From an uncultured Prevotellaceae bacterium (GTDB lineage Bacteria; Bacteroidota; Bacteroidia; Bacteroidales; Bacteroidaceae), in assembly GCA_902776195.1 (NCBI GenBank), contig CACYPF010000007.1:9568-73567 (forward strand): 64,000 nt of DNA, written 5' to 3'. Below are positions 7,960-25,398 of this stretch, one piece after another (the first letter of the stretch is position 1; each line of letters begins with the position of its first letter). Made by a program: the position numbers and the translations under genes. The notes beneath the pieces were generated by a model. That model ran no database searches, was not told where the DNA came from, and was given only the letters and a program-made list of their open reading frames with translations.

Positions 7960-9096
7960 ATGGATTTAGTTTATCAAATAAAGAAAAATAAATGGTTTTT
8001 TGGGATTTATTTCTTAATAGTTTCTTGTTTTTTAAAGTTTTTGAAATTATTTGTTAAACCAGATGACCATTTGATACTTTTTGTATCTTATGGTGGACGC
8101 TATTTCAATGATAGTCCAAAATGCATTTATGATGCGATGCTTTCTGACGATAGATTTAAACATTATAAACTCGTATGGGCTTTTGTTCGTCCTGAACAAT
8201 ATTCATTAAAGACTTCTGTGATAAATATTAATTCTTTTTCGTACTTGATAACTGCCTTGAAAGCTAGATGTTGGGTAACGAATTCCGCTATTGAGCGGGG
8301 ACTTGATTTTAAAGGGAAAAATACATTTTATTTATATACAACTCATACTTCCTTTCCGAAGACGATTGAAAAATCCAGTATACCATATCTTTATACAATT
8401 AAACCAAAATATGATTGTGTATGTTCTCAAAGTGAAAAAGAAAGTGAAGTTTTGATTTCATCTGGGCTTGATAAAAGTTGTATTATTTTATCCGGTTATC
8501 CTAAAAATGATATTCTTTGTAATTATTCTGAGTCAAAACGAGTTTCATTAAGAAATAAGTTCGGTTATAATAAAGATAAGATAGTTATATTATATGCACC
8601 AACCTTCCGGGATGAGCATTTTGGGTCAATGAAATCCCCTGTAGACTTTAAGAAATGGGAAAAAATATTAGGTGATAAATATGTAGTCCTGTTTCGGGCA
8701 CATCCTGTCGTCGCCAATGAAACTGTAATAGATTCATCAACAGGGTTCGTGTATGACGTTAGCGATTATCCGAACAATATAGATTTGATGATTGTTTCTG
8801 ATATTCTGATTTCTGATTATTCGGGTATTTTTTTTGAATATGCTGTACAAAGAAAACCAATGTTCTGCTATGCATATGATTTTGAGGAGTATATAAAGAA
8901 TAGGGAGTTAAATTGTAATGTGCGAGAAGTCCTGCCAGGAGGATATATGGATGAAAATGAATTATTGCAAACAATAAAAGAAGGACAATTCGAGAAATAT
9001 CAGGTTCTTTGGGAGAATTTCAGAAAGGATTATGTTTCGGAATATGGACATGCTACGGAAATTTGTTTAAATAAAATATATGATGAGATTAACTGA
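7960..9096 (+). CDS. TagF/TagB-family CDP-glycerol:glycerophosphotransferase-like protein
   Basis: DSPKCIY, GYPKND, ILYAPTFRD, RAHP and LISDYSGIFFEYA motifs; ATG 7960 preferred over TTG 7948. Confidence 0.88.
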   Translation: MDLVYQIKKNKWFFGIYFLIVSCFLKFLKLFVKPDDHLILFVSYGGRYFNDSPKCIYDAMLSDDRFKHYKLVWAFVRPEQYSLKTSVININSFSYLITALKARCWVTNSAIERGLDFKGKNTFYLYTTHTSFPKTIEKSSIPYLYTIKPKYDCVCSQSEKESEVLISSGLDKSCIILSGYPKNDILCNYSESKRVSLRNKFGYNKDKIVILYAPTFRDEHFGSMKSPVDFKKWEKILGDKYVVLFRAHPVVANETVIDSSTGFVYDVSDYPNNIDLMIVSDILISDYSGIFFEYAVQRKPMFCYAYDFEEYIKNRELNCNVREVLPGGYMDENELLQTIKEGQFEKYQVLWENFRKDYVSEYGHATEICLNKIYDEIN

Positions 9097-9306
9097 TGTT
9101 TGGCGGGCGGTGTTTTATATGTAATATGAAATGCTAATTGAGGTGTCCTTATTGGTGGCAATGCGATGATCGGGGCTGGTGCAAAAATACTGCCAGGTGT
9201 TATTATTGGTAATAATATTAAAATTGGTGCAAATGCTGTTGTTGTTGAAAATATACCGGACAATGTGACGGTAGTTCTTCCAAAGTCTCGTGTTATTATA
9301 AAATGA
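9096..9306 (+). pseudogene. Internally deleted/frameshifted CysE-like hexapeptide-repeat acetyltransferase
   Basis: ATG 9096 overlaps the tagF stop and reads MFGGRCFICNMKC*; 9142-9306 reads [54 protein letters not shown] with an in-frame TGA just upstream at 9139; the stop overlaps the next ATG. Confidence 0.75.
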
Positions 9307-11996: not shown

Positions 11997-13103
11997 TTGA
12001 TGGAGAATTATAATCTCTTTTTTGAACTCGTTAGAATTTCTATTGGACAGGCATGCCAACTCTCGGTTTCGCCTTCATTAGAACAATGGAAACAGTTGTA
12101 TGAGTATGCGATGCAACAGACACTAATAGGTGTTTGTTTTGCAGGAGTTAAGCGGCTGAAAGAACAAGGGATAGAAATACCTCAATCCTTGTTTATGACG
12201 TGGTTGTCGCAGGCTGTGTTCATTAAAGAAAGGAATGAGAAAATGAACCGATGGTCTGCTTCTCTTTGTCAGAAGATTAACGATGAAGGTTTCGATTGTT
12301 GTGTGTTGAAAGGACAATCTTTAGCAGCACTCTATACAGGCGAGCTAAGTATGTTACGTCAGTCAGGGGATATTGATATATGGATGTTGGCATCACATAA
12401 AGAAGTCATACGCTGGGGGCAAGAAAATGGTGGCATTTGGTATTATGACTACCATCATGCAGATTATATTGGAATGCAGAGTGTAGAGGTGGAGTTGCAT
12501 TATCGTCCAACGCTTAGTAGAAACTTGTTACGCAATGCTAGGTTGCAACGATGGATTAGAAAAGAGGGAGTTGCGTTGATTGCAAAATCTGAAACAAATT
12601 TCCCCATGCCCAGTAAACTGTTTAATCTGATATTGGTTCTTAATCATAATTTCTGGCATTTATTGTATGAAGGAGTGGGACTAAGGCAAACCATGGACTT
12701 ATACTATACATTGTTGCATAACGACTATCGGAAAGATGAAGTCCAATCTTTATTGCAGTACTTTGGATTAGACAAATTTGCTGCTGCCAATATGTGGGTG
12801 ATGCAAGAATTGTTTGCATTGCCTGCTGATAAAATGGTTGTTACACCAAATGATGAGGCAGGTAGGCACCTCCTGCACGAAATCATGCAAGCAGGCAATT
12901 TTGGTCATTATGACAAACGGCTTATGCAGAACAGATATCGTAACAGGATTTTGTTAATGGCTGGTTGGATGAAGCATAACTTTAGACTCTTTCGCTATTA
13001 TCCCGCAGATGTGTTGTGGTCGCCACTGGGCGTACTATATATTTCTATGTGGCGTAGGTGGCATTATCTGATAGATGGCATAAAGTTAAATAAAAAGATT
13101 TAA
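11997..13103 (+). CDS. Nucleotidyltransferase family protein (NTP_transf_5-like)
   Basis: LKGQSLA..Y, RQSGDIDIW, VEVELHY and GVGLRQ..D motifs. Confidence 0.8.
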   Translation: MMENYNLFFELVRISIGQACQLSVSPSLEQWKQLYEYAMQQTLIGVCFAGVKRLKEQGIEIPQSLFMTWLSQAVFIKERNEKMNRWSASLCQKINDEGFDCCVLKGQSLAALYTGELSMLRQSGDIDIWMLASHKEVIRWGQENGGIWYYDYHHADYIGMQSVEVELHYRPTLSRNLLRNARLQRWIRKEGVALIAKSETNFPMPSKLFNLILVLNHNFWHLLYEGVGLRQTMDLYYTLLHNDYRKDEVQSLLQYFGLDKFAAANMWVMQELFALPADKMVVTPNDEAGRHLLHEIMQAGNFGHYDKRLMQNRYRNRILLMAGWMKHNFRLFRYYPADVLWSPLGVLYISMWRRWHYLIDGIKLNKKI

Positions 13104-13109
13104 GTATAT

Positions 13110-14255
13110 ATGGTTAAGATTATACGTGCAACGACAGTACCTCAGTCTTTGAATAATTTTTGCAAAGATATATTAAGGGAGTTGTCCGAGCGATATGAAG
13201 TTGTAGGATTGTCTTCTCCTGGTTTAGAACTTGAGGAGGTGGCTAATCGAGAGGGGGTTAGGGTAATAGCCGTCCCAATGGAGCGACATATATCATTGGT
13301 AAAAGACTTTAAGGCTTTGATAAAGATGATAGGTGTGTTCCGTAGAGAGAAACCAACGATGGTACATTCGATGACACCAAAGGCAGGACTGCTATGTATG
13401 GTGGCAGGATGGCTGACAAGAGTGCCCGTTCGTGTACACACTTTTACAGGACTTGTTTTCCCTACTTCAACGGGACTGAAACGCAGAATCCTAATGACGA
13501 CGGACTGGCTGACATGCGCATGTGCTACGCATGTGATTCCGGAAGGGGAGGGGGTTAAAAGTGATCTTCTCAATAATAAGATTACGAAAAAAACGCTGAA
13601 AGTGTTAGGCTATGGAAATGTAATGGGGGTAGATATGACCCGCTTTTCATGCAGACCAGAGATTAAATTGTTGGAACAAAAATTAAGAGATTCGAGTCTG
13701 ATAACATTCTTATTTGTGGGCCGAATAGTGAAGGATAAAGGAATTAACGAACTATGTGCGGCATTCAAATGTTTGCATGAAAAAAATCCCAATACGAGAC
13801 TGTGGCTGATTGGACCCTATGAAGATGCGTTAGACCCCGTGTCTCCCGAAACACGTAAGATTATTAACGAGAAGAATGGTGTGTATGCTTTAGGAAAAAG
13901 AACAGGAGACGAATTGTTATCCTATTATGCTGCCGCAGATTGTTTTGTTATGCCAAGTTACCGTGAGGGATTCCCAAATACAGTGCTTGAAGCAGGAGCG
14001 ATGGGGCTGCCATCAATAGTAACAGATATCAATGGATCTCGTGAGATTATTCGAGATGGTGAAAACGGGTTAATAGTTCCTCCTCAGAAATCTGAACCTC
14101 TTTTTGATGCCATGGGACGGATGATGAGAGATAAAACAGCTAGGGAATATATGGCAGGTAATGCAAGAAAGATGATAGCGGATAGATTTGAGCAAAGTTT
14201 TGTCCGAAAATGTTTGTATGACTTTTATGATGAAATATTGAAACCTTATGTATAA
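13110..14255 (+). CDS. GT4 glycosyltransferase (PglA/CapM-like)
   Basis: HSMTPKAG, FVGRIVKDKGINEL and PSYREGFPNTVLEA motifs. Confidence 0.92.
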   Translation: MVKIIRATTVPQSLNNFCKDILRELSERYEVVGLSSPGLELEEVANREGVRVIAVPMERHISLVKDFKALIKMIGVFRREKPTMVHSMTPKAGLLCMVAGWLTRVPVRVHTFTGLVFPTSTGLKRRILMTTDWLTCACATHVIPEGEGVKSDLLNNKITKKTLKVLGYGNVMGVDMTRFSCRPEIKLLEQKLRDSSLITFLFVGRIVKDKGINELCAAFKCLHEKNPNTRLWLIGPYEDALDPVSPETRKIINEKNGVYALGKRTGDELLSYYAAADCFVMPSYREGFPNTVLEAGAMGLPSIVTDINGSREIIRDGENGLIVPPQKSEPLFDAMGRMMRDKTAREYMAGNARKMIADRFEQSFVRKCLYDFYDEILKPYV

Positions 14256-14868
14256 ACATTTTTTTAAGCGATTCTTTGATTTTTGGATTTCGCTGATTGC
14301 GCTTATCTGTATTAGTCCTATTCTGTTGATTGTTACCATCTGGCTCCATTATGCCAATAAAGGAGCTGGTGCATTCTTCTTTCAGGAGCGTATAGGAAAA
14401 AATGAAAAAATTTTTAAAGTCATTAAGTACAAAACAATGACAGACGAGCGTGATGCAGAGGGGAATCTGCTACCCGATGAACAGCGACTGACCAAAGTCG
14501 GAATCTTCGTGCGCTCGACATCGATTGATGAGTTGCCTCAGTTAATTAATGTGCTTAAAGGTGATATGGCATTGATAGGGCCAAGACCTTTACTTGTAAG
14601 ATATTTACCTTGGTACACAGAAGAGGAACGGCATAGACATGACATTCGGCCGGGAATTAGTGGATGGGCTCAGTGTCATGGAAGGAATTGTGTTACTTGG
14701 GATGACAAGTTGGCTATGGATGTCTGGTACGTAAAACATATATCACTAATAACAGATATTAATATAATATTGATGACAATTAAATCAGTATTATTCAGAG
14801 AATCAGTTGAGGTTGCAGGTGTTGAAGCACTTGATGTATGTCGAATGGAAAAAAATAAAAAAAATTAA
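14248..14868 (+). CDS. PglC-like initiating phosphoglycosyltransferase (sugar transferase)
   Basis: KRFFD, FFQERIG, KYKTM, DELPQLINVLKGDMALIGPRP and RPGISGWAQ motifs. Confidence 0.93.
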   Translation: MYKHFFKRFFDFWISLIALICISPILLIVTIWLHYANKGAGAFFFQERIGKNEKIFKVIKYKTMTDERDAEGNLLPDEQRLTKVGIFVRSTSIDELPQLINVLKGDMALIGPRPLLVRYLPWYTEEERHRHDIRPGISGWAQCHGRNCVTWDDKLAMDVWYVKHISLITDINIILMTIKSVLFRESVEVAGVEALDVCRMEKNKKN

Positions 14869-14881
14869 TATCTTGCAAAAT

Positions 14882-15889
14882 ATGAAAATAGCAGTTGTAT
14901 TTGGCGCAACAGGTCAACTTGGCTGTTATAGCGCTTTAGCTCTTAAAGATAGTGGTTACGATGTTGTAGCTGTTGGCAGAAGAATATCCGATAATGGTTT
15001 CTTTGCAACAAAAGGAATTAAATTTGTTGGAGGTTTTGACATCTCTTCGAAGGAAGCATTTGATTTGTTGCCTAGAAAAAAATATGATGTGGTTGTGAAT
15101 ATGGCGGGAACAATGCCTGCTCATGCTGATAGGAATATGATGCCATACGTGCAGAGTATTGTTGTTGGTACTGTGAATCTGTGCAATTGGATGAAACAAA
15201 ATGGAACAAGACGGATAGTCTTCAATACAACTCCGAGTGATGTTGCAGAGCATTGGGGCAATACCGACCCTATTGATGACGATGCGCCTCGCTCATTTCC
15301 TAAGAATGGAAATGACCATGCTGTCTATGCTATTTGTAAACGTGCTGCATGCGACATTTTGGAGCATTGCCAAATTGCAGATGACTTTGAGCCTTGTATA
15401 TTTCGGCACTTTATGGTATATGGTTGGCATCCTGATGCTTGGTATTATCTTGATGGAGAGAAAAGAATGTTGCCTTGGCGTTATATGATACGTCGCTGTA
15501 TAAATGGGAAAGGAATTGATGTTTATGGTGATGCTTCCCGTCTCAAAGAGCTTTTATACATTAAGGATTTTGCGTCAGCGGTAGTTCGTGCAGCAGATAC
15601 CCATATTTGTGGCATTTTTAATCTACCAGGTTATAAGCCGTATACTTTAGATGAGATGGTTGATGGTATTATGGCGGCATTCGCGACAAAAGATGCGATC
15701 AAGACTTATCGACCAGATATGCCAGATACTCCTCAGATTTTACTTTCTGGCAAAAAAAGTAAAGAAGTACTTGGTTGGGAACCTCAATGGACATGGGAGA
15801 AAGCCTGTAAAGACATGAAGGCTGAAAGCCAAACCAATCCGATTGAGTTGATGTGGGGACCAATTGATGATGAAGATAGAATTAAGTAA
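14882..15889 (+). CDS. NAD-dependent epimerase/dehydratase (extended SDR)
   Basis: FGATGQLG Rossmann motif, YAICK (YxxxK); ATG 14882 preferred over the overlapping 14807 start. Confidence 0.82.
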   Translation: MKIAVVFGATGQLGCYSALALKDSGYDVVAVGRRISDNGFFATKGIKFVGGFDISSKEAFDLLPRKKYDVVVNMAGTMPAHADRNMMPYVQSIVVGTVNLCNWMKQNGTRRIVFNTTPSDVAEHWGNTDPIDDDAPRSFPKNGNDHAVYAICKRAACDILEHCQIADDFEPCIFRHFMVYGWHPDAWYYLDGEKRMLPWRYMIRRCINGKGIDVYGDASRLKELLYIKDFASAVVRAADTHICGIFNLPGYKPYTLDEMVDGIMAAFATKDAIKTYRPDMPDTPQILLSGKKSKEVLGWEPQWTWEKACKDMKAESQTNPIELMWGPIDDEDRIK

Positions 15890-17124
15890 TGCAACAAGTA
15901 TCATACAAAATGTTAAAAAATCTGGATGAAATATATGGAACGCCTTTCTATATTATGTATCCAGATAAATACAGATATAACATCAATAGCTTTATAAATT
16001 CTTTCAAGAGGAAGTATAATAAAGTTGTTGCTGGCTATTCTTTTAAAACTAATTATGTGCCTGCATTGTGTAGCATTGCTAAAGTAGAAGGGTGTTATGC
16101 GGAGGTCGTTTCTGAAATGGAATATGCATTAGCTCAAAAGATTGGTTTTAAGAATATCATTTTTAATGGACCAATCAAACGTCCGAAAATACTCAAGCAA
16201 GCACTGGAAGATGGAGTGGTCATCAACCTTGATAGCGAATATGAAGTTGAATTAGTTTGCCAGTATAAGCGTGAGAATCCTGAAAGGAACGTTAAGGTTG
16301 GTTTGAGAATTAATATTAACTTGACTGACGAAAATGGCAATAGCACTATTCAGTGTGGGTTGAGGTTCGGTAGATTCGGTTTCCCTGATGAAATAATCGG
16401 AAATAGTATAGAGAAATTAAAAAATGCAGGAATCAAAATTATTTCCTTGCATGGGCATACATCAACCTCTGATAGGGCTGTATTGAATTATAAAATAATA
16501 ACTCAACACATGTTAGCCTCCTGTGAGAAGTATCAATTGAATGATTTGGAATACTTCGATATTGGTGGAGGCTTTTTTGGTGCTGCACCAGAAGGTATGG
16601 ACTTAACAGGAAGACCCAAATATGAAGATTATGCTGATTGTATTTTAGGAGAGGTCTTAACGAATAATTGGTTTTTGAAACAAAAACCTATTATCGTGAT
16701 TGAGCCAGGCTCTTCTGTTGTATCAAATGTTTTTACTTACTACACAAAAGTCTATCAGAATAAAAGGGTTGGAAAGGTAAATTTTGTGATGGTAGATGGA
16801 TCTGTTTTTGATGTAAAGCCAACAATGCATTCCAACAATCTGCCGCATGCAGTATTTAGAGCCTGCACAAATTATGAATCTTACGTTTGTGATGTGGTTG
16901 GATCTACATGTATGGAGAAAGATGTGATGCTTAAGGAAGTGACATTGCCAAAGATGGAGGCTGGTGATTATATCCAGTTTCGGGGAGTCGGCGCATATAC
17001 AATCTGTATGACACCAACGTTTATCAATTACCTTGAGCCTATCTTAATGGAAGAAAATGGCGAATATGTAGAGGTCAGAAGAAGACAAACAATAGATGAT
17101 GTTATACAAATATATAATTATTAG
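15889..17124 (+). CDS. LysA/ODC-fold (group IV) PLP-dependent decarboxylase
   Basis: YSFKTN (PLP Lys), HGH, DIGGGF, IEPGS, VVGSTCMEKD and GAY motifs. Confidence 0.85.
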   Translation: MQQVSYKMLKNLDEIYGTPFYIMYPDKYRYNINSFINSFKRKYNKVVAGYSFKTNYVPALCSIAKVEGCYAEVVSEMEYALAQKIGFKNIIFNGPIKRPKILKQALEDGVVINLDSEYEVELVCQYKRENPERNVKVGLRININLTDENGNSTIQCGLRFGRFGFPDEIIGNSIEKLKNAGIKIISLHGHTSTSDRAVLNYKIITQHMLASCEKYQLNDLEYFDIGGGFFGAAPEGMDLTGRPKYEDYADCILGEVLTNNWFLKQKPIIVIEPGSSVVSNVFTYYTKVYQNKRVGKVNFVMVDGSVFDVKPTMHSNNLPHAVFRACTNYESYVCDVVGSTCMEKDVMLKEVTLPKMEAGDYIQFRGVGAYTICMTPTFINYLEPILMEENGEYVEVRRRQTIDDVIQIYNY

Positions 17125-17133
17125 AATTGCATA

Positions 17134-18141
17134 ATGAATATACTTTTTACATGTGCAGGTCGTAGAACATACTTGCTGAAATATTTTAAAGAGAACCTCA
17201 CTGAGAGAGATAAGATTGTGGCTACTGATATGCAGTTGAGCGCACCTGCATTGCAAGCTGCTGATGTGAAAATACAGGTTCCAGCCGTGTATGACCCAAA
17301 CTATATAGATATAACTTTGGATATCTGTAAAGAGCAGAAGATAGATGCTCTGTTATGTTTAAATGATTTGGAATTGCCAATTCTTGCTGAGAGTAAGGCT
17401 CGCTTTGAGGCTATAGGTGTCAAAGTGATAGTGTCAGATCCTCAAGTGATTGACATTGCATTTGATAAGTATAAGACCGTAAAATGGGTGACATCACTTG
17501 GATTGAATGCTCCAAAAACATACGTAACCCTGGCATCAGCTAAAGAAGCTTTGTCTAAAGGAAAGATAGAATTCCCTCTGTTTATGAAACCGCGTTGGGG
17601 TAGCGGCTCCATTGGTTTGGAAACCATTGAAGATATGCAGGAATTGGACATTTATTATCATCTTCTGATGAAAAAAATCAAGAAGTCTATTCTCGCTACT
17701 GCATCTGTGGGTGATGAGTATATTATGATTCAAGAGAAACTTGGGGGAAAAGAGTTCGGGTTGGACGTGATGAATGACCTTAAAGGCAATAATGTGGCAG
17801 TATCTGTTAAGCAGAAGTTGGCAATGCGTGCTGGCGAAACGGATAAGGCAATTACTGTAAACCTTCCTGAAGTGCGAGAAATAGGGGTCACAATCGGTTG
17901 CAATTTAAAACATATTGGCAATCTTGATGTCGACATTATGCAGCGCGCTAATGGCGACTATTGCGTATTGGAACTGAATCCTCGTTTTGGCGGAGGGTTC
18001 CCGTTTTCATACGAGGCTGGAGTGAATCTACCCTTGGCTATCATTAAATGGCTGCGTGGGGATGAAGTATCTGCATCCATGCTCCAACCCGAATATGGCC
18101 GCATGTTTGCAAAAAACGATTACTTGATGGAGATACTATGA
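17134..18141 (+). CDS. ATP-grasp ligase (carbamoyl-phosphate-synthase-like, polysaccharide-locus type)
   Basis: MNILFTCAGRR start, KPRWGSGS, QEKL, MRAGETDKA and ELNPRFGGG motifs. Confidence 0.88.
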   Translation: MNILFTCAGRRTYLLKYFKENLTERDKIVATDMQLSAPALQAADVKIQVPAVYDPNYIDITLDICKEQKIDALLCLNDLELPILAESKARFEAIGVKVIVSDPQVIDIAFDKYKTVKWVTSLGLNAPKTYVTLASAKEALSKGKIEFPLFMKPRWGSGSIGLETIEDMQELDIYYHLLMKKIKKSILATASVGDEYIMIQEKLGGKEFGLDVMNDLKGNNVAVSVKQKLAMRAGETDKAITVNLPEVREIGVTIGCNLKHIGNLDVDIMQRANGDYCVLELNPRFGGGFPFSYEAGVNLPLAIIKWLRGDEVSASMLQPEYGRMFAKNDYLMEIL

Positions 18142-18150
18142 ATGCTAACC

Positions 18151-18249
18151 TAAGATAGAAGTTCGGTAAAATCGGTAATATTATCTGTAAATGTGGTTGT
18201 GAGATATAATTGGGAATGATTTAATTTTGCAACCAGAATTTAGCAATAA
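18151..18249 (+). repeat. 99-bp exact direct repeat of 19098-19196 (promoter region), copy 1
   Basis: TAAGATAGAAGTTCGG...TTTAGCAATAA identical in both places by eye; contains TAATTTTG -7 element at 18222-18229. Confidence 0.92.
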
Positions 18250-18349
18250 GAATTAGGAAAGCAACTGTTGAATGCTATTAAAGCTGCCCCAAATGATGCA
18301 GCGAGTTATCCTGCTATTAAGGATGTAAGTGTGGACATGAGCCAATATA
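18250..18349 (+). repeat. 100-bp copy of coding segment 19379-19478 of the flavodoxin fusion gene
   Basis: GAATTAGGAAAGCAACTG...GAGCCAATATA matches with one mismatch (GCT vs GCA). Confidence 0.92.
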
Positions 18350-18522
18350 TTTTCACTGGGGATACGCTGATAATGATGAAAAAGCTGTGGCGAAATTGAT
18401 CACAGGGGTAGTTGAGAAAAAATATGTAAAGCTCCTCTTGAAGAATTTATATAGTTTGTTAATCGACGGAAAAGGCATGTATATGCTAATACCAAGAATA
18501 AGTATAATATTGGATTTTTGAA
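18347..18522 (+). pseudogene. Possible relic of an MBL-fold hydrolase C-terminus
   Basis: Reads IFTGDTLI then, after a 1-nt shift, NDEKAVAKLITG; resembles the FTGD motif region of MBL-fold proteins. Confidence 0.35.
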
Positions 18523-19065
18523 TTGCAGGCGAAAGAGCGCGAAGACGTGAGAGAAGAGCTTGAACAATACTTTATTTTATTGTATCAATGTGTACCGCAG
18601 GAGGTTTATGAAGGTCTTCTTTCGGTATTTTGCTTAGGTATAGTTTTATTTGTCGCATTCAAGGGATTAAAAGTTGGTTTCAGGTGGTCGTCAATTCTTC
18701 TGCTAATAGAATACATCTTCTTGCTATTCTGCTCGACAGTCATCTTCAGATCTACAAACGAGGTGAGACGTTACGATTTTCATCTCTTCTGGAGTTATAA
18801 TAGACCTGACTTGTTAGTGGAAAATATCATGAATGTCATTGTATTCATTCCTGTCGGAATGATACTTGGTTCACTGTTAAGGGTTAAGGGTTCATGGTTA
18901 GTTGCGCTTTTGATAGGCTGTAGTATCTCTATCACCATAGAGGCACTACAGTTCTGGTTTATGAGAGGCTTCTCGGAGGTGGATGATGTGATGCATAATA
19001 CGGTGGGATGTTTCGTGGGATACATGCTGGTAAAGATTTCAAGGTTTATTGTTCCTGAATATTAG
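18523..19065 (+). CDS. VanZ-family membrane protein
   Basis: FWSY, ENIMNVIVFIPVG, IEALQF and FSEVDDVMHNTVG motifs; ORF-track start is TTG, exact start uncertain. Confidence 0.85.
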   Translation: MQAKEREDVREELEQYFILLYQCVPQEVYEGLLSVFCLGIVLFVAFKGLKVGFRWSSILLLIEYIFLLFCSTVIFRSTNEVRRYDFHLFWSYNRPDLLVENIMNVIVFIPVGMILGSLLRVKGSWLVALLIGCSISITIEALQFWFMRGFSEVDDVMHNTVGCFVGYMLVKISRFIVPEY

Positions 19066-19097
19066 AGGGTTGTGGTATAGTGAGAAATGAGGTATAT

Positions 19098-19196
19098 TAA
19101 GATAGAAGTTCGGTAAAATCGGTAATATTATCTGTAAATGTGGTTGTGAGATATAATTGGGAATGATTTAATTTTGCAACCAGAATTTAGCAATAA
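19098..19196 (+). promoter_or_regulatory. Promoter region of the flavodoxin fusion gene (copy 2 of the 99-bp repeat)
   Basis: Bacteroidetes -7 consensus TAnnTTTG as TAATTTTG at 19169-19176, 25 nt before ATG 19202. Confidence 0.7.
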
Positions 19197-19201
19197 TACT
19201 G

Positions 19202-21493
19202 ATGGCAATCCTTATGATGGGGATATGCTGTGGAACCAGGGCAAAGACACTGGTTGCATATTATAGCTACACAAATAATGTGAGGACTATCGTGAATGAA
19301 CTGGCCACACAAAAGGAGGTGGATGTGGTTGAGATTCAGTCCGCGGTGGATGGGCAGGACTATGTTGCCAATAACTATGAATTAGGAAAGCAACTGTTGA
19401 ATGCTATTAAAGCAGCCCCAAATGATGCAGCGAGTTATCCTGCTATTAAGGATGTAAGTGTGGACATGAGCCAATATAGTGATGTCATTGTGGCTACGCC
19501 GTTGTGGTGGAGTCAAATGGCCGCACCAATGCAGACGTTCTTGTTTCATAATGGAGCAGCCATGGCAGGGAAGAATATCTGGATGATAGTGTCAAGTGCC
19601 AGTTCGGGTATCAGTGGCGTGGTAGCGGATGCAGAACGGCTAATTCCTAGTGGTAATTTCCAAAGCAATAAATTATGGATAAAGTCTTCACAGGTGCCTC
19701 AGGCTGCAAGCATGCTGAATGAATGGTTGCTTTCCACAAGTCAGGTTGCTCCTGTTGATGGGAGGAAAATGGTGGTACTGTCTGATCCTCATGTGATGGC
19801 TCCTGAGTTACTGGTGAACGAAGGTACTGCGTGGACGACGTACTTGAACGGTCAACGTAAGTTGGTGGATTTTAGCCAGCGTCTGTTTGATGATATGATT
19901 GTACGTGTCAAACGGGATTTGCGTCCGGGACTAGTGCTTATCTCTGGTGACCTGACAAAAGATGGAGAACAGGTTAGTCATCAGTATGTGACAAGAAAAC
20001 TGGATGAATTGAGAGCTATTGGTATACAGACTTTGGTGGTGCCTGGTAATCATGACAGAGGTTCTAACTCTGACGCAGTGTATTATGATGGGGCAACTAC
20101 TACGGCTGCTGCTGTGGCAACGAATGAGTGGTTTGCCACGCAATATGCGAACTATGGCTATGGTGCAGGTTCAGAGCGAGAGGGTACAACACTGACCTAT
20201 GCTTGTGAACCGATTGCAGGGTTGGTTGTGATAGGTATAGACTCGGGTACTGATGGTAATGTTTCGCAAACCACACTGGATTGGGTGGTGGAGAAGGCTG
20301 CTGCTGCCAGGACAAGTGGAAAGAAAGTGATTGCCATGATGCACCATCCGCTGATACCTCACTTTACAGGTGTTGATAATTTTGTAAGTACAGCTGTAGT
20401 AGGAAACTATGAGACGGTACGTAACACTTTGGCTGATGCAGGCATCCGAGTGGTGTTCACTGGACATTTTCATACTTCGGATATTGCCAAGGACTGGAAT
20501 GCTGCCAAGACAAGGGAAATATATGATGTGAATACGGGGTCTCTCATTTCATACCCTTGTGACTACAGAGAGGTAACTATGAGTGCGGACCTGTCGGGAA
20601 TGGCGATAATGACAGGACATAGTACTGCCATAGCATCAGAAACAGCCAAAGAACGGCTGAAGTCTGCGATGCAGGAAAAGATAGCCGCAAAGGGTACGGC
20701 TTATTCTCTAATAGCTTCAACTGCTGCACAGGCGTTTATTATTCATGCTGAGGGTAATGAGGCTGATAATGCTGCTGCCTCCACGACTTTGTCAACACTG
20801 CTGAGTGCTGCTAATATGGGGCAGGCTTTGATTGGTGCAGACAAGGCTCAGGCGCTGAAGGACATGGCGAATAGTATGTTGCAGGATAAGAGCCAGTATG
20901 GTACAGATCGTGAGGATCAGACTAATGACTTGACACTGGGCATCGAATTGCCGGAGGCTATTAAGTTGGCTGCGGACGGTTATTCAACATATTGTTCGGA
21001 GAACAGACTGGATATCAGTCGGACTAATGGCGTGACTGCATATATCGTTAATAACATTACTGAAACAGCTGTTGAGTTGCAGGAGGTCAGTGTGATACCT
21101 GCTGAGACAGGATTTATACTGAAAGGTACTGGAAGTGCATGGTATGACTTGTATAAGACTAACAATGCGGTAGATGATGTGTCAAGTAACCTGCTAATTG
21201 GTACCTTGACAACTACCGCTGCATCAGCAAATACTTTTGCACTGTCAACAAAGAAAGGTGTGACAGGATTCTATCCTGTGAGCACAGGGTTGATGATTCC
21301 TGCCCATAGGGCATATCTCACGTTGTCAGATGGCATGTCAAGATTGCTGACTATTGATGGGGAGACAACTGGAATCGTGAGTGTTCGTGAGGAAGGGGCT
21401 CCTGTGGTGTTCTATAATCTACAAGGTGTCAAGATGCAGAGACCTGCTAAAGGGGTATATATTAGTAATGGTAAGAAAGTGGTCATTAAATAA
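19202..21493 (+). CDS. Secreted fusion: flavodoxin + calcineurin-like metallophosphoesterase + C-terminal T9SS-like sorting domain
   Basis: TLVAYYSYTNNV and ATPLWW (flavodoxin); SDPH, GDLT, GNHD, HHP and GHFH (phosphoesterase); ends TGIVSV...YNLQGVKMQRPAKGVYISNGKKVVIK. Confidence 0.85.
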   Translation: MAILMMGICCGTRAKTLVAYYSYTNNVRTIVNELATQKEVDVVEIQSAVDGQDYVANNYELGKQLLNAIKAAPNDAASYPAIKDVSVDMSQYSDVIVATPLWWSQMAAPMQTFLFHNGAAMAGKNIWMIVSSASSGISGVVADAERLIPSGNFQSNKLWIKSSQVPQAASMLNEWLLSTSQVAPVDGRKMVVLSDPHVMAPELLVNEGTAWTTYLNGQRKLVDFSQRLFDDMIVRVKRDLRPGLVLISGDLTKDGEQVSHQYVTRKLDELRAIGIQTLVVPGNHDRGSNSDAVYYDGATTTAAAVATNEWFATQYANYGYGAGSEREGTTLTYACEPIAGLVVIGIDSGTDGNVSQTTLDWVVEKAAAARTSGKKVIAMMHHPLIPHFTGVDNFVSTAVVGNYETVRNTLADAGIRVVFTGHFHTSDIAKDWNAAKTREIYDVNTGSLISYPCDYREVTMSADLSGMAIMTGHSTAIASETAKERLKSAMQEKIAAKGTAYSLIASTAAQAFIIHAEGNEADNAAASTTLSTLLSAANMGQALIGADKAQALKDMANSMLQDKSQYGTDREDQTNDLTLGIELPEAIKLAADGYSTYCSENRLDISRTNGVTAYIVNNITETAVELQEVSVIPAETGFILKGTGSAWYDLYKTNNAVDDVSSNLLIGTLTTTAASANTFALSTKKGVTGFYPVSTGLMIPAHRAYLTLSDGMSRLLTIDGETTGIVSVREEGAPVVFYNLQGVKMQRPAKGVYISNGKKVVIK

Positions 21494-21502
21494 TCGGGCA
21501 TT

Positions 21503-21643
21503 ATGAAGAAGATATATATGATTCCGCAGGTTGATGTGATTCAACTGAAACTAACTACTCTGGTACTGGTAGGCTCTCCCGATAGTATCCCTTATTCTAA
21601 AGATCCAACAGATGAGATTGACGATCCAGAGGAGATACATTGA
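21503..21643 (+). CDS. Unannotated 46-aa small protein with MKKxYxxP leader-like N-terminus and acidic tail
   Basis: MKKIYMIPQVDVIQLKLTTLVLVGSPDSIPYSKDPTDEIDDPEEIH*; starts 9 nt after the upstream stop. Confidence 0.7.
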   Translation: MKKIYMIPQVDVIQLKLTTLVLVGSPDSIPYSKDPTDEIDDPEEIH

Positions 21644-21718
21644 GGATTATTAGTTTACAAAATTTACAAACTCGGAATCAACCAAAGGTCGAGTACAAGG
21701 TTGGGCTGAAAGAATCTG

Positions 21719-21808
21719 GGTTCATGGTTGATTGTAGCTTTCATAGGCTGTAGTATCTCTATCGTGATAGAGGTACTACAGTTCTGCTTTATGAAAGGCT
21801 TCTCGGAA
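21719..21808 (+). pseudogene. Degenerate vanZ fragment
   Basis: Colinear with 18889-18978, 14 mismatches in 90 nt by hand alignment; reads GSWLIVAFIGCSISIVIEVLQFCFMKGFSE; in-frame stop upstream at 21707. Confidence 0.85.
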
Positions 21809-21888
21809 ATGGAAGGATGCTCATGGAACTTTAATCGGGTTTGGAATAATAATTTTTTTGAGAATAATATTTAAAATAAGATATAAAA

Positions 21889-23193
21889 ATGTCTGAAAGA
21901 AAAAGAATTTATCTCTGTCTGGCTCACATGAGCGATGATGGCGCTGAACAGCGTTATGTTAAGGAGGCTTTTGATACTAATTGGGTAGTACCACTGGGAC
22001 CTAATGTGAATGGGTTTGAAAAGGATTTGGAGGACTTTGTGAACGGTGTTGGAGAAAACCATGAATCATGCACCATGAACCGTGAACCGCTGACAAAGCG
22101 TGTGGTCGCTTTGTCGGCTGGTACTGCTGCAGTGCATCTGGGATTGTTGAACTGTGGGGTGAAGCCGGGGGATGAGGTGATTGTGCAGAGCTTTACGTTC
22201 TGTGCATCAACACATCCTGTGACATACTTGGGAGCTACACCTGTGCTCGTGGATTCGGAGCCGGATACATGGAATATCGACCCGGAGTTGCTGGAGGAGG
22301 CAATCAAAGACCGTAAGGCTAAGACGGGTAAGTATCCTGCGGCTATTGTGCCGGTGGCTCTGTATGGTATGCCGTATAAGGCTGACCGTATCATGGAGAT
22401 TGCTAATAAGTATGGGATTCCTGTGGTGGAGGATGCTGCTGAGGGATTCGGTACTAGGTATAAAGGACAGGTGTTAGGTACGTTTGGTAAATATGGGGTG
22501 CTGTCGTTTAACGGTAACAAGATGATTACAACCTCTGGTGGCGGTGCGCTGATTACTGCAAATGATGATGAATGGCGGGAGATAATGATGTACGCCACAC
22601 AGTATCGGGAAAGTTATCCATACTATCAGCATGAGAAGATAGGATATAACTATCGTATGTCGAATATCTGTGCCGGAATTGGTCGTGGTCAGATGACAGT
22701 GGTGAATGACCACCTTGCTCATCATAAGCACGTACAGAAGATGTACGAAGAGCTTTTGGCTGATGTGCCTGGAATACACGTACACTCTCAGCCTAACAAT
22801 GGTGATTATGATTCTAACTACTGGCTGTGTACCATCACCATTGATGAGGATGTGAAGGTGAAGGGTCAGGAGGATGCCTATAAGACTATCGTGACAGGTG
22901 CCGTAGGTGGTGCTGCCGGTGTCATCCATGCTGCTGCCTCTGCTCATACGGATTGTGAACCTAATGCCAATGTGGAGGCTATGCGTGTAGCTCTTGATCA
23001 GGCACAGATTGAGGCTCGTCCTGTATGGAAGCCCATGCACAAACAGCCTTGTTATAAGGATGCTCCTGCCTACGTGAACGGAGTATCGGAAGCACTCTTC
23101 AAGGTCGGAATGTGTCTGCCTGCCGGACCATACGTCAGCGATGATGATGTAAGGTACATCGTTGATACAATAAAGGAAAACATCATCGGATGA
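21889..23193 (+). CDS. DegT/DnrJ/EryC1/StrS sugar aminotransferase (PglE-like)
   Basis: SAGTAAVHL, EDAAE, SFNGNKMITTSGGG (PLP Lys), GYNYRMSNI and ARPVWKPMH motifs. Confidence 0.93.
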   Translation: MSERKRIYLCLAHMSDDGAEQRYVKEAFDTNWVVPLGPNVNGFEKDLEDFVNGVGENHESCTMNREPLTKRVVALSAGTAAVHLGLLNCGVKPGDEVIVQSFTFCASTHPVTYLGATPVLVDSEPDTWNIDPELLEEAIKDRKAKTGKYPAAIVPVALYGMPYKADRIMEIANKYGIPVVEDAAEGFGTRYKGQVLGTFGKYGVLSFNGNKMITTSGGGALITANDDEWREIMMYATQYRESYPYYQHEKIGYNYRMSNICAGIGRGQMTVVNDHLAHHKHVQKMYEELLADVPGIHVHSQPNNGDYDSNYWLCTITIDEDVKVKGQEDAYKTIVTGAVGGAAGVIHAAASAHTDCEPNANVEAMRVALDQAQIEARPVWKPMHKQPCYKDAPAYVNGVSEALFKVGMCLPAGPYVSDDDVRYIVDTIKENIIG

Positions 23194-23347
23194 CATCCTT
23201 TTGTGTAACGTGACACAGGACGAACGATGGTTGGGGAGGTATGAGGAGGTGATGGGGTGATTTGAAAGCGGTGGAGTGTAAGTGTCTGAAACAGCCTGCC
23301 AAGTCGAATTTAATGTAAATATTATTGCTATATTCAATTTTATTTCG

Positions 23348-23355
23348 TACCTTTG
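23348..23355 (+). promoter_or_regulatory. -7 promoter element of the pglF-like gene
   Basis: TACCTTTG matches TAnnTTTG, 36 nt upstream of ATG 23392. Confidence 0.65.
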
Positions 23356-23391
23356 CGGCATCAAATCTATAGAAACTTAAATTGGAAGGAA

Positions 23392-25398
23392 ATGTTTGTG
23401 TTAGATAAAGTGAATCCATTTAAAAAACTGATGATCTGGTATTTCAGTAAGAAGGCACTGCCATATTGGTGTATTCTTATTCTGGATTTCTTGATTCTGA
23501 TGTTTGCTGGTATATTGACATACTGGATATTTATCTATCGCCGTAAGATAGGCTTTGACCAGTCAATGCTGCTGCAGACACTGTTTATGTATGCACTGCC
23601 CAGCATCATTGGAGCGAGGATGTTCCATACCTACTCTGGTATCATCCGCTATTCTTCGTTTGTGGACCTGACCCGTGTGGCGTATGCTAATTTGGTGTCG
23701 CTATGTATCGCCTTTCCGATGCATCATTTCGTTCATTCTTTACCGAGAGACTTGTTCTATTCTTTGCATTTCAGACACATTATCCTGATGTATCTGATAG
23801 CTACGGCTCTGATGTGGGGAGTGCGTGTGCTGGTAAAGACATTGTATGAAATGACCACTACAGATGCTCGTGCTTTAAGGGTGTTTATCTATGGTGCAAT
23901 GGAAGGTGGCATTGGACTGGCTAAGAGTGTCCGCTCGCAGAATCCAAAACGTTTCATTGTCAAGGGATTTATTGCAAGTGAGGGGACATATAGCCATAAG
24001 CAAGTGATGGGTGAGAAGGTGTTCAGTACTGCTGACGATCTGCCCAAGATCATAGAGAACTACAGGATTGAGGCTATCCTGATTGCCCCACAAAGACTTA
24101 ATGAGTTCCGTAAAGCGCAGGAACTTCAGGACAGGATTCTCAGTACGGGCGTGAAGATATTCATGTCGCAGAATGCCAAGGAGATGAATGTCAAAGACGG
24201 TGAACTGGAGGATGTCTCTGAGGAGGAATTCCACTTGAAGGAGGTCAGCGTGGAAGACTTGCTGCCGAGAGACGAGATCCGTGTGGACATGAAGTCGATG
24301 GAGGAACTGCTGAAGGGAACGAAAGTGCTGATAACAGGTTCTGCAGGTAGCATCGGTTCGGAGATGGTGCGCCAGGTGGCAGCTTTCAAACCGGCAAAAA
24401 TGGTTCTTATAGACCAGGCGGAGACTCCTCAGCATGATATCCAGTTGATGATGGAGAGGGATTTCCCGGACATCGAAGCGGAGGTGTTGGTGACGAGTAT
24501 CAGCCGGCAGCGGCGCATGGAGGAGATCTTCAGTACGTTCAGACCTGACTATGTGTTCCATGCTGCTGCCTATAAGCATGTGCCAATGATGGAGGGTAAT
24601 CCCTCTGAGGCAGTGCTGAACAATATATGGGGTACGAAGATTATCGCAGACTACTCGGTGAAGTACGGGGTGAAGAAGTTTGTGATGATATCGACGGACA
24701 AGGCAGTGAACCCGACGAACGTGATGGGATGCTCGAAGCGTATCTGTGAGATTTACGTGCAGAGTCTCGACCAGGCAATAAAAGATAAGAAAACACCGGA
24801 ATACTTGCAACTGCTGAATAACAAGCAGCAAGGCGAGTCAGGGAAACAGGCGTACAGGACTCAGTTCGTGACGACACGCTTTGGAAATGTACTGGGGTCT
24901 AACGGCTCTGTGATTCCTTTGTTTAGGGAGCAGATCAGACGTGGTGGTCCTGTAACGGTGACAGACCAGCGTATCGTACGTTTCTTTATGCTGATACCTG
25001 AGGCTTGTAAGCTGGTGCTGGAGGCAGGCACAAAAGGTAACGGCGGTGAGATATTCGTATTCGATATGGGACAGCCTGTGAAGATTGCGGATCTGGCGCG
25101 GCGTATGATTAAACTCTCAGGGGCAAAGGACGTGGAGATTGTGTATACGGGTCTGCGTCCGGGAGAGAAACTCTATGAGGAGGTGCTGAACGAACTGGAG
25201 GGTACGAAGCCGACATTCCATGAGAAGATCCGTATTGCTGAGGTGCGCGAGTATGACTTTGCAGACATCAGTAAACAGGTGAATGACCTGGTGGAGATCT
25301 CTAAGCGCTATGATAATATGGAGACAGTGAAGAAGATGAAGGAGATCGTACCAGAGTATAAGAGTAACAATTCCGAATACGAGGTACTTGACAAATAA
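23392..25398 (+). CDS. PglF/WbpM/CapD-like membrane-bound UDP-GlcNAc 4,6-dehydratase
   Basis: N-terminal TMs; TGSAGSIGSE, HAAAYKHVP, STDKAVNPTNVMGCSKR, TRFGNVLGSNGSV and GLRPGEKLYEE motifs; the 23353 start would lie inside the promoter. Confidence 0.93.
   Translation: MFVLDKVNPFKKLMIWYFSKKALPYWCILILDFLILMFAGILTYWIFIYRRKIGFDQSMLLQTLFMYALPSIIGARMFHTYSGIIRYSSFVDLTRVAYANLVSLCIAFPMHHFVHSLPRDLFYSLHFRHIILMYLIATALMWGVRVLVKTLYEMTTTDARALRVFIYGAMEGGIGLAKSVRSQNPKRFIVKGFIASEGTYSHKQVMGEKVFSTADDLPKIIENYRIEAILIAPQRLNEFRKAQELQDRILSTGVKIFMSQNAKEMNVKDGELEDVSEEEFHLKEVSVEDLLPRDEIRVDMKSMEELLKGTKVLITGSAGSIGSEMVRQVAAFKPAKMVLIDQAETPQHDIQLMMERDFPDIEAEVLVTSISRQRRMEEIFSTFRPDYVFHAAAYKHVPMMEGNPSEAVLNNIWGTKIIADYSVKYGVKKFVMISTDKAVNPTNVMGCSKRICEIYVQSLDQAIKDKKTPEYLQLLNNKQQGESGKQAYRTQFVTTRFGNVLGSNGSVIPLFREQIRRGGPVTVTDQRIVRFFMLIPEACKLVLEAGTKGNGGEIFVFDMGQPVKIADLARRMIKLSGAKDVEIVYTGLRPGEKLYEEVLNELEGTKPTFHEKIRIAEVREYDFADISKQVNDLVEISKRYDNMETVKKMKEIVPEYKSNNSEYEVLDK

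Follow-up and report, generated by a model that had tools for sequence, protein, structure and literature searches.

A putative N-acylating ATP-grasp ligase and an uncharacterised SDR-decarboxylase cassette beside the priming transferase of a Bacteroidales capsule locus

Gene content and organisation of the locus

The window (the whole stretch of DNA analysed here, 64,000 nucleotides from an uncultured Prevotellaceae bacterium) contains a capsule locus of the type found in gut Bacteroidales, in which genes for a GT4 glycosyltransferase, a PglC-like transferase, a short-chain dehydrogenase/reductase (SDR), a LysA-like decarboxylase and an ATP-grasp ligase form one compact row. The GT4 and PglC-like genes overlap by 8 nt, the stop of the SDR gene and the start of the decarboxylase gene share 1 nt (TAATG), and 9 nt separate the decarboxylase from the ligase. 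Profile matches recovered all of the genes that an earlier note on this DNA had named, at or near the positions that it gave:

13110 to 14255, + strand: GT4 glycosyltransferase (Pfam Glycos_transf_1, E 2e-33)
14248 to 14868, + strand: small monotopic phosphoglycosyl transferase of PglC/WcfS type (Pfam Bac_transf, E 1.6e-59)
14882 to 15889, + strand: extended SDR (Pfam Epimerase, E 3e-28; GalE similarity weak)
15889 to 17124, + strand: fold-III PLP decarboxylase, ligase-associated subfamily (TIGR01048, 182 bits, cut-off 298)
17134 to 18141, + strand: ATP-grasp amide ligase, NCBIfam PRK12767.1-3 family (NF009404, 412 bits, cut-off 316)
18523 to 19065, + strand: VanZ-like membrane protein (Pfam VanZ, E 3.5e-18)
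21889 to 23193, + strand: PglE/WcfR-like sugar 4-aminotransferase (Pfam DegT, E 1e-84)
23353 to 25398, + strand: PglF/CapD-like membrane-anchored UDP-GlcNAc 4,6-dehydratase (Pfam Polysacc_synt_2, E 3e-110; N-terminal CoA_binding_3 match)
9139 to 9276, + strand: relic fragment of a hexapeptide-repeat acyltransferase (TIGR03570, positions 152-197 of 202)

The likely start of the SDR is the ATG at 14882 and not the TTG at 14807, giving a protein of 335 aa, equal in length to its homologues. The PglE-like and PglF-like genes lie downstream of the ligase, and since the VanZ gene and a flavodoxin-phosphoesterase gene intervene, the ligase may not be co-transcribed with them. The VanZ-like protein is a recurrent neighbour of the cassette, its gene being found elsewhere between ligase and DegT (locus L024) or upstream of PglC (locus L021). 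The capsule locus additionally encodes IspD/TarJ-like, LicD, TagF-like and class-V PLP enzymes (phosphodiester-linked substituents).

The dehydratase, 4-aminotransferase and small phosphoglycosyl transferase of diNAcBac synthesis are all present. The best solved relative of the PglC-like protein is Campylobacter PglC (8g1n, E 2.5e-65) and that of the PglE-like protein is C. jejuni PglE (E 1e-76); the former is predicted to start the repeat unit on undecaprenyl phosphate, and the latter to supply the 4-amino group of the sugar. The gene previously described as PglA-like does encode a GT4 enzyme, yet it displays only generic GT4 traits and its identity as PglA is not upheld. Homologues with 58-68% identity sit directly 5' of PglC in other loci (L022, L024, L026, L027, L038, L044), and the enzyme probably adds the second sugar onto the lipid-linked primer.

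Absence of PglD and of a carrier protein

In the Campylobacter PglF-PglE-PglD-PglC pathway to diNAcBac the dehydratase, aminotransferase and priming transferase are homologous to those of the window, whereas the window locus is without PglD. Neither the locus nor the 9.5 kb preceding the window contains a pglD, and no protein of the genome scores above the cut-off of the NeuD/PglD family (TIGR03570), such that the earlier proviso that pglD might lie upstream no longer holds. The same 9.5 kb contain no acyl carrier protein, and the locus itself yields neither a PP-binding domain match nor an ACP-sized ORF in its intergenic gaps, in agreement with the original statement that no carrier protein is visible. 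The hexapeptide relic, previously placed at 9096-9306, is real and consists of an open fragment of 46-58 aa (approximately 9139-9276), which matches only the C-terminal left-handed-helix part of the NeuD/PglD model. Because this part is generic to hexapeptide transferases, the fragment is not assignable as a pglD relic, and it is not part of the pathway.

The LysA-like decarboxylase and the SDR

We rejected the identification of the decarboxylase as LysA: its score of 182 bits falls below the cut-off of 298, three marker motifs are changed, and the true lysA of the genome lies elsewhere, on contig 29 (C29:5781-6884; TIGR01048, 420 bits). The window gene is consequently not the sole lysA, a second copy being what the earlier note had looked to as support for a specialised role. 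The PLP Lys and the HxH, GGG, E and GAY motifs are retained, while E(P/L)GR is replaced by EPGS (as had been read from the sequence), RPxxY by KPTMH and CESxD by CMEKD; the LysA of the same genome has ELGR, RPALY and CESTD. In an alignment of 26 ligase-adjacent members (the window plus 25 loci, from at least seven phyla) the PLP catalytic residues are retained throughout, and the Arg of EPGR, the RPxxY motif and the CESxD motif are missing from all 26. The enzyme belongs to a separate, ligase-associated subfamily that is not LysA. Its second-best model is FslC, an N-citrylornithine decarboxylase, and its structural relatives include FslC (E 3e-30) and BtrK (E 2.8e-20).

The SDR carries an NADP-type motif (VAVGRR) and a catalytic YAICK, and accompanies decarboxylase-ligase pairs from two divergent lineages, the genes being arranged in three different orders. 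A Firmicute MAG encodes an SDR 75% identical to that of the window together with a decarboxylase and ligase only 31-35% identical, a pattern that suggests recruitment of the SDR next to both lineages of pair. It is a candidate tailoring redox enzyme; alternatively, it could act on the sugar ring as a 4-ketoreductase or epimerase, co-occurring only via a shared 4-keto intermediate.

The ATP-grasp ligase and its genomic neighbours

The ligase is a member of a large family numbering in the thousands, and matches PDB 2pn1 (E 3e-53), a structure deposited as carbamoylphosphate synthase large subunit and of unassigned function. The gene order PglC-[variable]-ligase-DegT occurs in 33 Bacteroidales loci, and DegT copies with 52-82% identity to the PglE-like protein of the window lie directly 3' of the ligase in many Bacteroidales loci. 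A wider survey counted the neighbours in 118 ligase-carrying loci from many phyla, and found a PglC-like gene near the ligase in 72 and a DegT in 70, as against only 8 loci with a sugar dehydrogenase and 4 with a PglD-like gene. Neisseria and B. cereus were not among the 80 loci retained from each of three genome scans. Loci without DegT within 9 kb of the ligase include the P. distasonis-type locus L220, and in such cases the amine acceptor could differ. Predicted fusions join the ligase to DegT (P0132), to a priming transferase in the architecture of PglB2 (P0136), to PglD (P0121, P0154) and to a PALP partner (P0202), and others to GNAT or FemAB-like domains or to a second ATP-grasp.

These associations bear on the acceptor of the ligase. 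Reportedly, during capsule synthesis in Campylobacter jejuni an ATP-grasp enzyme amidates glucuronate with a decarboxylase-derived amine. By a similar (Cj1438-like) reaction, which the earlier note had offered as its alternative, an amine made by the decarboxylase would be joined to a uronic acid or other acidic substituent, leaving the 4-amino sugar free as the AATGal of B. fragilis PSA. Indeed, PglF/PglE/PglC without PglD is a known route to AATGal (PMC11626204), and the genome does contain one NDP-sugar dehydrogenase. However, this only dehydrogenase is on contig 35 (C35), outside the locus, such genes are near the ligase in far fewer surveyed loci than DegT (8 against 70), PglD-like genes almost never accompany it, and its fusions are to DegT, a priming transferase and PglD. 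We consequently regard amidation of a uronate as very unlikely. Moreover, while clear homologues of WcfR and WcfS exist in the window, PSA is without the conserved amide ligase between transferase and aminotransferase, and with this ligase present and PglD absent, the amine here is probably not left free and probably not acetylated.

A further explanation is that the SDR, decarboxylase and ligase make a separate substituent (for example for a ribitol- or glycerol-phosphate part of the same capsule) or a free dipeptide-like metabolite, and are close to pglC by chance. The IspD/TarJ-like, LicD, TagF-like and class-V PLP enzymes of the same locus would suit such a role, yet adjacency of the decarboxylase-ligase pair to PglC and DegT recurs in cyanobacteria, Chloroflexota, Thermodesulfobacteriota, Verrucomicrobiota, Bacillota and Pseudomonadota, and on informal inspection most of these loci showed no LicD or TagF genes. 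We give this explanation scarcely any credence.

Among gut Bacteroidales loci the ligase is the shared core. Near-identical ligases are accompanied in other loci by a D-cysteine-desulfhydrase-family PLP enzyme, by a second ATP-grasp or by no partner, and identity is 80-88% among those with a decarboxylase, a PALP or no partner. In the tree, decarboxylase-partnered and PALP-partnered ligases of the gut Bacteroidales clade are intermixed, and shuffling the partner labels separates the two groups at least as well as any alignment column. Both findings argue against adaptation of the ligase to its partner and are consistent with tailoring that follows ligation, although an absence of partner-specific residues would also be expected from frequent recombination around a promiscuous ligase.

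Comparison with characterised systems

Substitution of an ATP-grasp enzyme for PglD is itself already known, from Neisseria PglB2 and B. cereus Pyl, a precedent that, like the AATGal route, the earlier note did not mention. PglB2 is an ATP-grasp/phosphoglycosyl transferase giving a 4-glyceramido sugar (PMC11130364). In the GATDH pathway of N. meningitidis (O-linked protein glycosylation), the ATP-grasp replaces a PglD-type enzyme and a non-acetyl acyl group is placed on the 4-amine, as proposed here, a likeness drawn from architecture and description. However, PglB2 is fused to a PglC-type domain, whereas the window ligase is a separate gene with decarboxylase and SDR partners, and given these partners the acyl group is unlikely to be glycerate. 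In the UDP-yelosamine pathway of B. cereus ATCC 14579, as described, Pdeg and Pat are followed by Pyl, which joins a carboxylic acid, 2-oxoglutarate, to UDP-4-amino-FucNAc, and the genes adjoin a small priming transferase (PMC11626204). By description, the succession of dehydratase, aminotransferase and ATP-grasp is that of the window. This description mentions no decarboxylase or SDR partner for Pyl, in contrast to the window cassette, and since a PLP decarboxylase is unable to use a 2-oxo acid, the acid used here should carry an amino group.

A precedent for pairing ligase and decarboxylase is provided by BtrJ/BtrK (butirosin) and FslA/FslC (rhizoferrin), in which the ligase attaches an amino acid by one of its carboxyl or amino groups and a LysA-fold decarboxylase then decarboxylates the free amino-acid end of the conjugate. 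FslA is not known to be an ATP-grasp enzyme; the window resembles BtrJ/BtrK in having an ATP-grasp beside a LysA-fold decarboxylase. BtrJ/BtrK use a carrier protein, whereas none is encoded in the window locus, where the acceptor would instead be a UDP-amino sugar. The analogy with BtrJ/BtrK drawn in the earlier note provides a reasonable model. The adjacent pair is kept in at least seven phyla.

A proposed route to the priming sugar

Overall, we consider it rather likely that the priming sugar is made by a route of PglB2/Pyl type instead of the PglD route. On our best reading, the ligase takes over from PglD and N-acylates UDP-4-amino-4,6-dideoxy-HexNAc, with an acyl group that is tailored by the decarboxylase and the SDR. 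Judging from family membership, the PglF-like and PglE-like enzymes would convert UDP-GlcNAc to the UDP-4-amino-4,6-dideoxy-HexNAc. The ligase (17134-18141), the proposed N4-acylating enzyme, would then turn a carboxylic acid into an acyl phosphate and couple it as an amide to the 4-amino group, a step suggested by synteny, fusions and the two published precedents. The ligated acid would most likely have an amino-acid end, with side-chain-linked Asp or Glu and diaminopimelate as candidates; a single ligated acid common to all partners is nevertheless a shaky assumption, given that no reaction on side-chain-linked Asp or Glu suggests itself for a D-cysteine-desulfhydrase-type enzyme. The LysA-like decarboxylase may next strip the alpha-carboxylate on the UDP-sugar to leave an omega-amino acyl group, the order of ligation and decarboxylation being proposed by analogy with BtrJ/BtrK and FslA/FslC, and the NADP-type SDR may carry out one further redox reaction on the UDP-bound intermediate. 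Finally, the PglC-like transferase would load the completed sugar phosphate onto undecaprenyl phosphate for extension by the GT4 enzyme. The most likely product of the cassette is a first sugar with an amino-acid-derived side group, which may be positively charged. Of the interpretation originally advanced, an unusual amino-acid-derived N-acyl group on the initiating sugar fits the PglC-[x]-ATP-grasp-DegT synteny and the ligase fusions, while the uronate alternative and the upstream pglD fall away.

The opposite order of events is credible, if unlikely. Here the decarboxylase, alone or together with the SDR, would first generate an amino acid (beta-alanine, GABA or a lysine-like acid, for example) from a free amino dicarboxylic acid, and the ligase would attach the product to the 4-amino sugar. 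Decarboxylases of free building blocks are common, the decarboxylase gene is 5' of the ligase gene in most loci, and a distal carboxylate could be held by the conserved Lys of the KPT motif. However, ligases that are 80-88% identical and have no partner-specific positions are unexpected if the partners deliver different acids, and all three LysA marker motifs are changed, two of them arginine-containing; in LysA structures these arginines are taken to be the binders of the distal carboxylate of diaminopimelate. Furthermore, FslC and BtrK, the nearest named relatives of the decarboxylase other than LysA, both act on conjugated amino acids, which favours ligation first.

The two orders differ only in the sequence of steps, and their end product could be the same.

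More speculatively, and with considerable doubt, the near-invariant ligase of gut Bacteroidales may be viewed as a docking point for swappable tailoring (by a decarboxylase, alone or together with the SDR, by a D-cysteine-desulfhydrase-like PLP enzyme, by a second ligase, or by nothing further), by which one ligated amino acid on the priming sugar would give rise to differently charged groups. The decarboxylase version would yield a primary amine on a spacer and, combined with the phosphodiester substituents of the locus, a zwitterionic capsule of a new chemical class, unlike B. fragilis PSA with its free-amine AATGal.

Implications for capsules of gut Bacteroidales

The SDR-decarboxylase-ligase cassette is uncharacterised and common in gut bacteria. 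Database entries show it in Parabacteroides distasonis and Phocaeicola vulgatus, and in Segatella copri they show the decarboxylase-ligase pair lacking the SDR; hundreds of contigs from gut metagenomes carry one arrangement or the other. The entries consulted call the decarboxylase a ‘hypothetical protein’ and the ligase simply an ‘ATP-grasp domain-containing protein’. Screens for immunomodulatory zwitterionic capsules in gut Bacteroidales have relied on wcfR/wcfS-type genes and assumed that the 4-amino group is free (PMC10167101). With a conserved amide ligase between such genes, many of these loci probably carry an acylated amine, and the charge pattern of their capsules would then hinge on the tailoring enzyme present. 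Once the acyl group is named, thousands of proteins of this family could be annotated, and bacterial glycan chemistry would gain a new building block.

Gene content of the capsule locus

The first 18 kb of the window form a plus-strand polysaccharide locus of the Wzx/Wzy type with low GC (0.31-0.41), and all of the genes named in the earlier note (GT4, PglC-, PglE- and PglF-like, SDR, decarboxylase and ATP-grasp) were recovered in the window. In the order listed, the genes are as follows.

Flippase
EpsG-like polymerase
IspD/TarJ-like and LicD genes
Class-V PLP enzyme
Cytidylyltransferase-oxidoreductase fusion
TagF-like transferase
MBOAT protein
11997-13103, plus strand, NTP_transf_5 protein
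GT4 glycosyltransferase
PglC-like transferase
SDR, most likely starting at the ATG at 14882, plus strand
LysA-like decarboxylase
17134-18141, plus strand, ATP-grasp ligase
18523-21493, VanZ-like gene and flavodoxin-phosphoesterase fusion

Next, at higher GC (0.46-0.49), are a DegT aminotransferase gene and one for a PglF-like dehydratase, ahead of a housekeeping TrpB-like gene. Its hybrid two-component regulators and the nearest relatives of its genes assign the genome to the Bacteroidales, close to Prevotellaceae. Structure-database matches link the PglC-like protein to solved PglC (E 2.5e-65) and the DegT protein to solved PglE of C. jejuni (E 1e-76). Genes are tightly packed, with overlaps of 8 nt between GT4 and PglC and of 1 nt between SDR and decarboxylase, and a gap of 9 nt between decarboxylase and ligase; the start favoured for the SDR gives a protein of 335 aa, as in its homologs. 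The VanZ-like gene and the fusion, a 763-aa flavodoxin-metallophosphoesterase, stand between the ligase and DegT/PglF, and because a Segatella copri locus (L024) has a VanZ-like gene alone in this interval, the fusion appears to have been inserted later. The NTP_transf_5 protein, described as an 'uncharacterised nucleotidyltransferase', recurs near the cassette of SDR, decarboxylase and ligase in loci L018, L021, L022, L045 and L047, at just 22-29% identity.

Absence of an intact pglD

A pglD and an acyl carrier protein gene were sought upstream of the window, as the earlier note proposed; neither is among the genes of the preceding 9.5 kb, which comprise a VapE-like and an HU-like gene, two rmlC fragments, an HNH/AAA pair and an rRNA-IVS protein. 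Moreover, no protein reached the NeuD/PglD cut-off in a whole-genome profile search, and a carrier-protein gene was not found in the locus, as the earlier note had also observed for the window. The hexapeptide relic that it described is real (9139-9276), and matches the C-terminal part alone of the NeuD/PglD model, a generic stretch. Inspection of the gap after the ligase (18142-18522) for a PglD relic revealed nothing PglD-like.

In Parabacteroides distasonis-type loci (L220:12429-12707, also L221 and L222), a 92-aa ORF directly 3' of the ligase matches the N-terminal domain of PglD only, and may be the remnant of a replaced pglD, recalling the insertion of pglB2 in pglB of Neisseria. Just upstream of the window (locus L009, G000:C7, 5368-5856 and 9061-9477), two ORFs match positions 1-113 of 168 of the dTDP-4-dehydrorhamnose 3,5-epimerase profile (its N-terminal two thirds), and the stretch separating the two carries an HNH-like ORF, an AAA_15/AAA_21 ATPase, an unknown ORF and the 23S rRNA-IVS protein, an arrangement that looks like an insertion with partial duplication of rmlC.

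A decarboxylase subfamily distinct from LysA

The possibility that the window decarboxylase is the sole lysA of its genome can be dismissed, as contig 29 carries a true lysA: against the TIGR01048 cut-off of 298 bits, its product scores 420 and the window protein only 182. We aligned the window decarboxylase and the genome's true LysA with 25 ligase-adjacent decarboxylases from Bacteroidota, Cyanobacteriota, Chloroflexota, Thermodesulfobacteriota, Actinomycetota, Verrucomicrobiota, Bacillota and Pseudomonadota. All aligned ligase-linked decarboxylases retain the PLP lysine and the EPG glutamate, along with the motifs HxH, GGG and GAY. The EPGS reported for the window protein where LysA has E(P/L)GR was confirmed, and the arginine of this motif is missing from every ligase-linked sequence; furthermore, all have KPT or NP for RPxxY, and TCMExD for CESxD. 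Retention of the catalytic motifs together with alteration of those of LysA points to a separate, ligase-linked subfamily that is probably active. In the NCBI records looked up for P. distasonis and S. copri, the decarboxylase is labelled "hypothetical protein".

In the cluster of L220:10031-12290, library proteins P0399/P0403 are a 752-aa read-through that joins decarboxylase (99% identity over 409 aa) and ligase (99% identity over 341 aa) by a two-residue linker. Recorded on 8 assembled contigs, this form may be a natural fusion, or may stem from an assembly or indel artefact.

Distribution and neighbours of the ligase

The window ligase exceeds the cut-off of NCBIfam NF009404, whose name, "carbamoyl phosphate synthase-like protein", is uninformative; its sole close solved relative, 2pn1, was deposited as a carbamoylphosphate synthase large subunit without assigned function, and the P. 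distasonis and P. vulgatus records looked up at NCBI read "ATP-grasp domain-containing protein". With a limit of E 0.001, the search for relatives yielded 6610 representatives. In an order-level sample of 401 genomes, spread evenly over families and hence saying little on gut species, we found the ligase in 6, the decarboxylase in 2 and the SDR in 8. Scans of genome collections recovered ligase loci from many phyla, but none from Neisseria or B. cereus among the 80 matches listed per scan.

Among gut and rumen Bacteroidales, 33 loci share the order PglC, variable genes, ligase, DegT, with ligases 72-88% identical; carriers include Segatella copri, Prevotella, Parabacteroides, Alistipes, Porphyromonas and Paludibacteraceae. 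What fills the variable slot is most commonly a 300-aa PLP enzyme (D-cysteine desulfhydrase/ACC deaminase family, hereafter PALP); other loci have the decarboxylase alone there, a second ATP-grasp with the PLP enzyme, or nothing, and the window, L026, L031 and L220 have SDR and decarboxylase. Across L018-L049 (e.g. L021:9088-9990, L018:7791-9080), the PLP enzyme, whose family also takes in cysteate sulfo-lyase, mostly fills the slot, at times joined by a second ATP-grasp of 429 aa.

Over many phyla, the ligase lies near DegT in 70 of 118 loci and near a PglC-type transferase in 72, with a PglD-like gene in only 4. The alternative raised in the earlier note, amidation of a uronate, is weakly supported at best, and we reject it on these association counts: an NDP-sugar dehydrogenase is rare near the ligase (8/118), and the genome's only sugar dehydrogenase lies on another contig. 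That the cassette is an unrelated module which merely sits beside pglC is contradicted by the recurrence of its synteny in distant phyla.

Predicted proteins of the representative library include fusions of the ligase with DegT (P0132), a PglC-type transferase (P0136), PglD (P0121, P0154) and the PLP partner (P0202), as well as with GNAT acetyltransferases, FemAB-like domains, a second ATP-grasp and GT4. That acetyltransferases and FemAB-like domains are among the fusion partners suggests that what the ligase adds often bears a free amine, which would later be acetylated or extended.

The SDR

The SDR begins with GxxGxxG and carries a YAICK catalytic pair and a VAVGRR stretch, the latter motif being typical of NADP binding, which is thus the predicted cofactor; likeness to GalE-type enzymes is weak. 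In P. distasonis and P. vulgatus, SDRs 84% identical occur in the order PglC-SDR-decarboxylase-ligase, on hundreds of contigs. A 35% identical SDR lies upstream of PglC-decarboxylase-ligase in a further genome from the order, and remoter relatives adjoin other ATP-grasp genes and DegT. A MAG labelled Ruminococcus (L223/L224:5848-9008) has DegT-PglC-decarboxylase-ligase-SDR, then GT4, IspD, SDR, LicD and EpsG, and closely resembles the window in gene content; at the sequence level its SDR shares 75% identity with that of the window, whereas decarboxylase and ligase share only 31-35%, which suggests transfer of the SDR across phyla, or mis-binning. Recurrent placement beside decarboxylase-ligase modules argues that the SDR is functionally tied to them.

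Order of steps

In a maximum-likelihood tree of 112 ligases, gut Bacteroidales form a well supported clade of 30 rows in which PALP-partnered (16), decarboxylase-partnered (9) and other or partnerless ligases (5) are intermixed, and the window ligase is nearest to PALP-partnered ones (88% to L022). At no alignment column could decarboxylase- and PALP-partnered ligases be told apart better than under shuffled labels, the best accuracy (0.85) equalling the shuffle 95th percentile. Together, the mixed tree and the lack of a partner-specific column suggest that the ligase is indifferent to its partner enzyme.

Such indifference fits a scheme in which the ligase would attach one acid and the partner enzyme would then trim the product, as in BtrJ/BtrK of butirosin synthesis. 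A promiscuous ligase combined with frequent recombination is compatible too, and we therefore hold this order of steps with moderate confidence only; the decarboxylase may instead work first, on a free acid. The next-best named relatives of the window decarboxylase, the N-citrylornithine decarboxylase FslC and BtrK, both act on already conjugated amino acids.

Precedents and implications

In Neisseria, the ATP-grasp/phosphoglycosyl transferase PglB2 yields the 4-glyceramido sugar GATDH, not diNAcBac (PMC11130364). A second documented precedent is the ATP-grasp Pyl of Bacillus cereus. In proposed function and in architecture, the window ligase closely matches both. An ATP-grasp standing in for PglD is already known as a general mechanism. 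Literature searches on ATP-grasp with decarboxylase in capsule synthesis, or on ATP-grasp combined with trideoxy sugars, brought up nothing of relevance; tailoring by decarboxylase and SDR, and the arrangement with interchangeable partners, are uncharacterised so far. Predictions of zwitterionic capsules from wcfR/wcfS, the B. fragilis PSA aminotransferase and priming transferase genes, assume a free amine (PMC10167101), which this ligase would probably remove or relocate.
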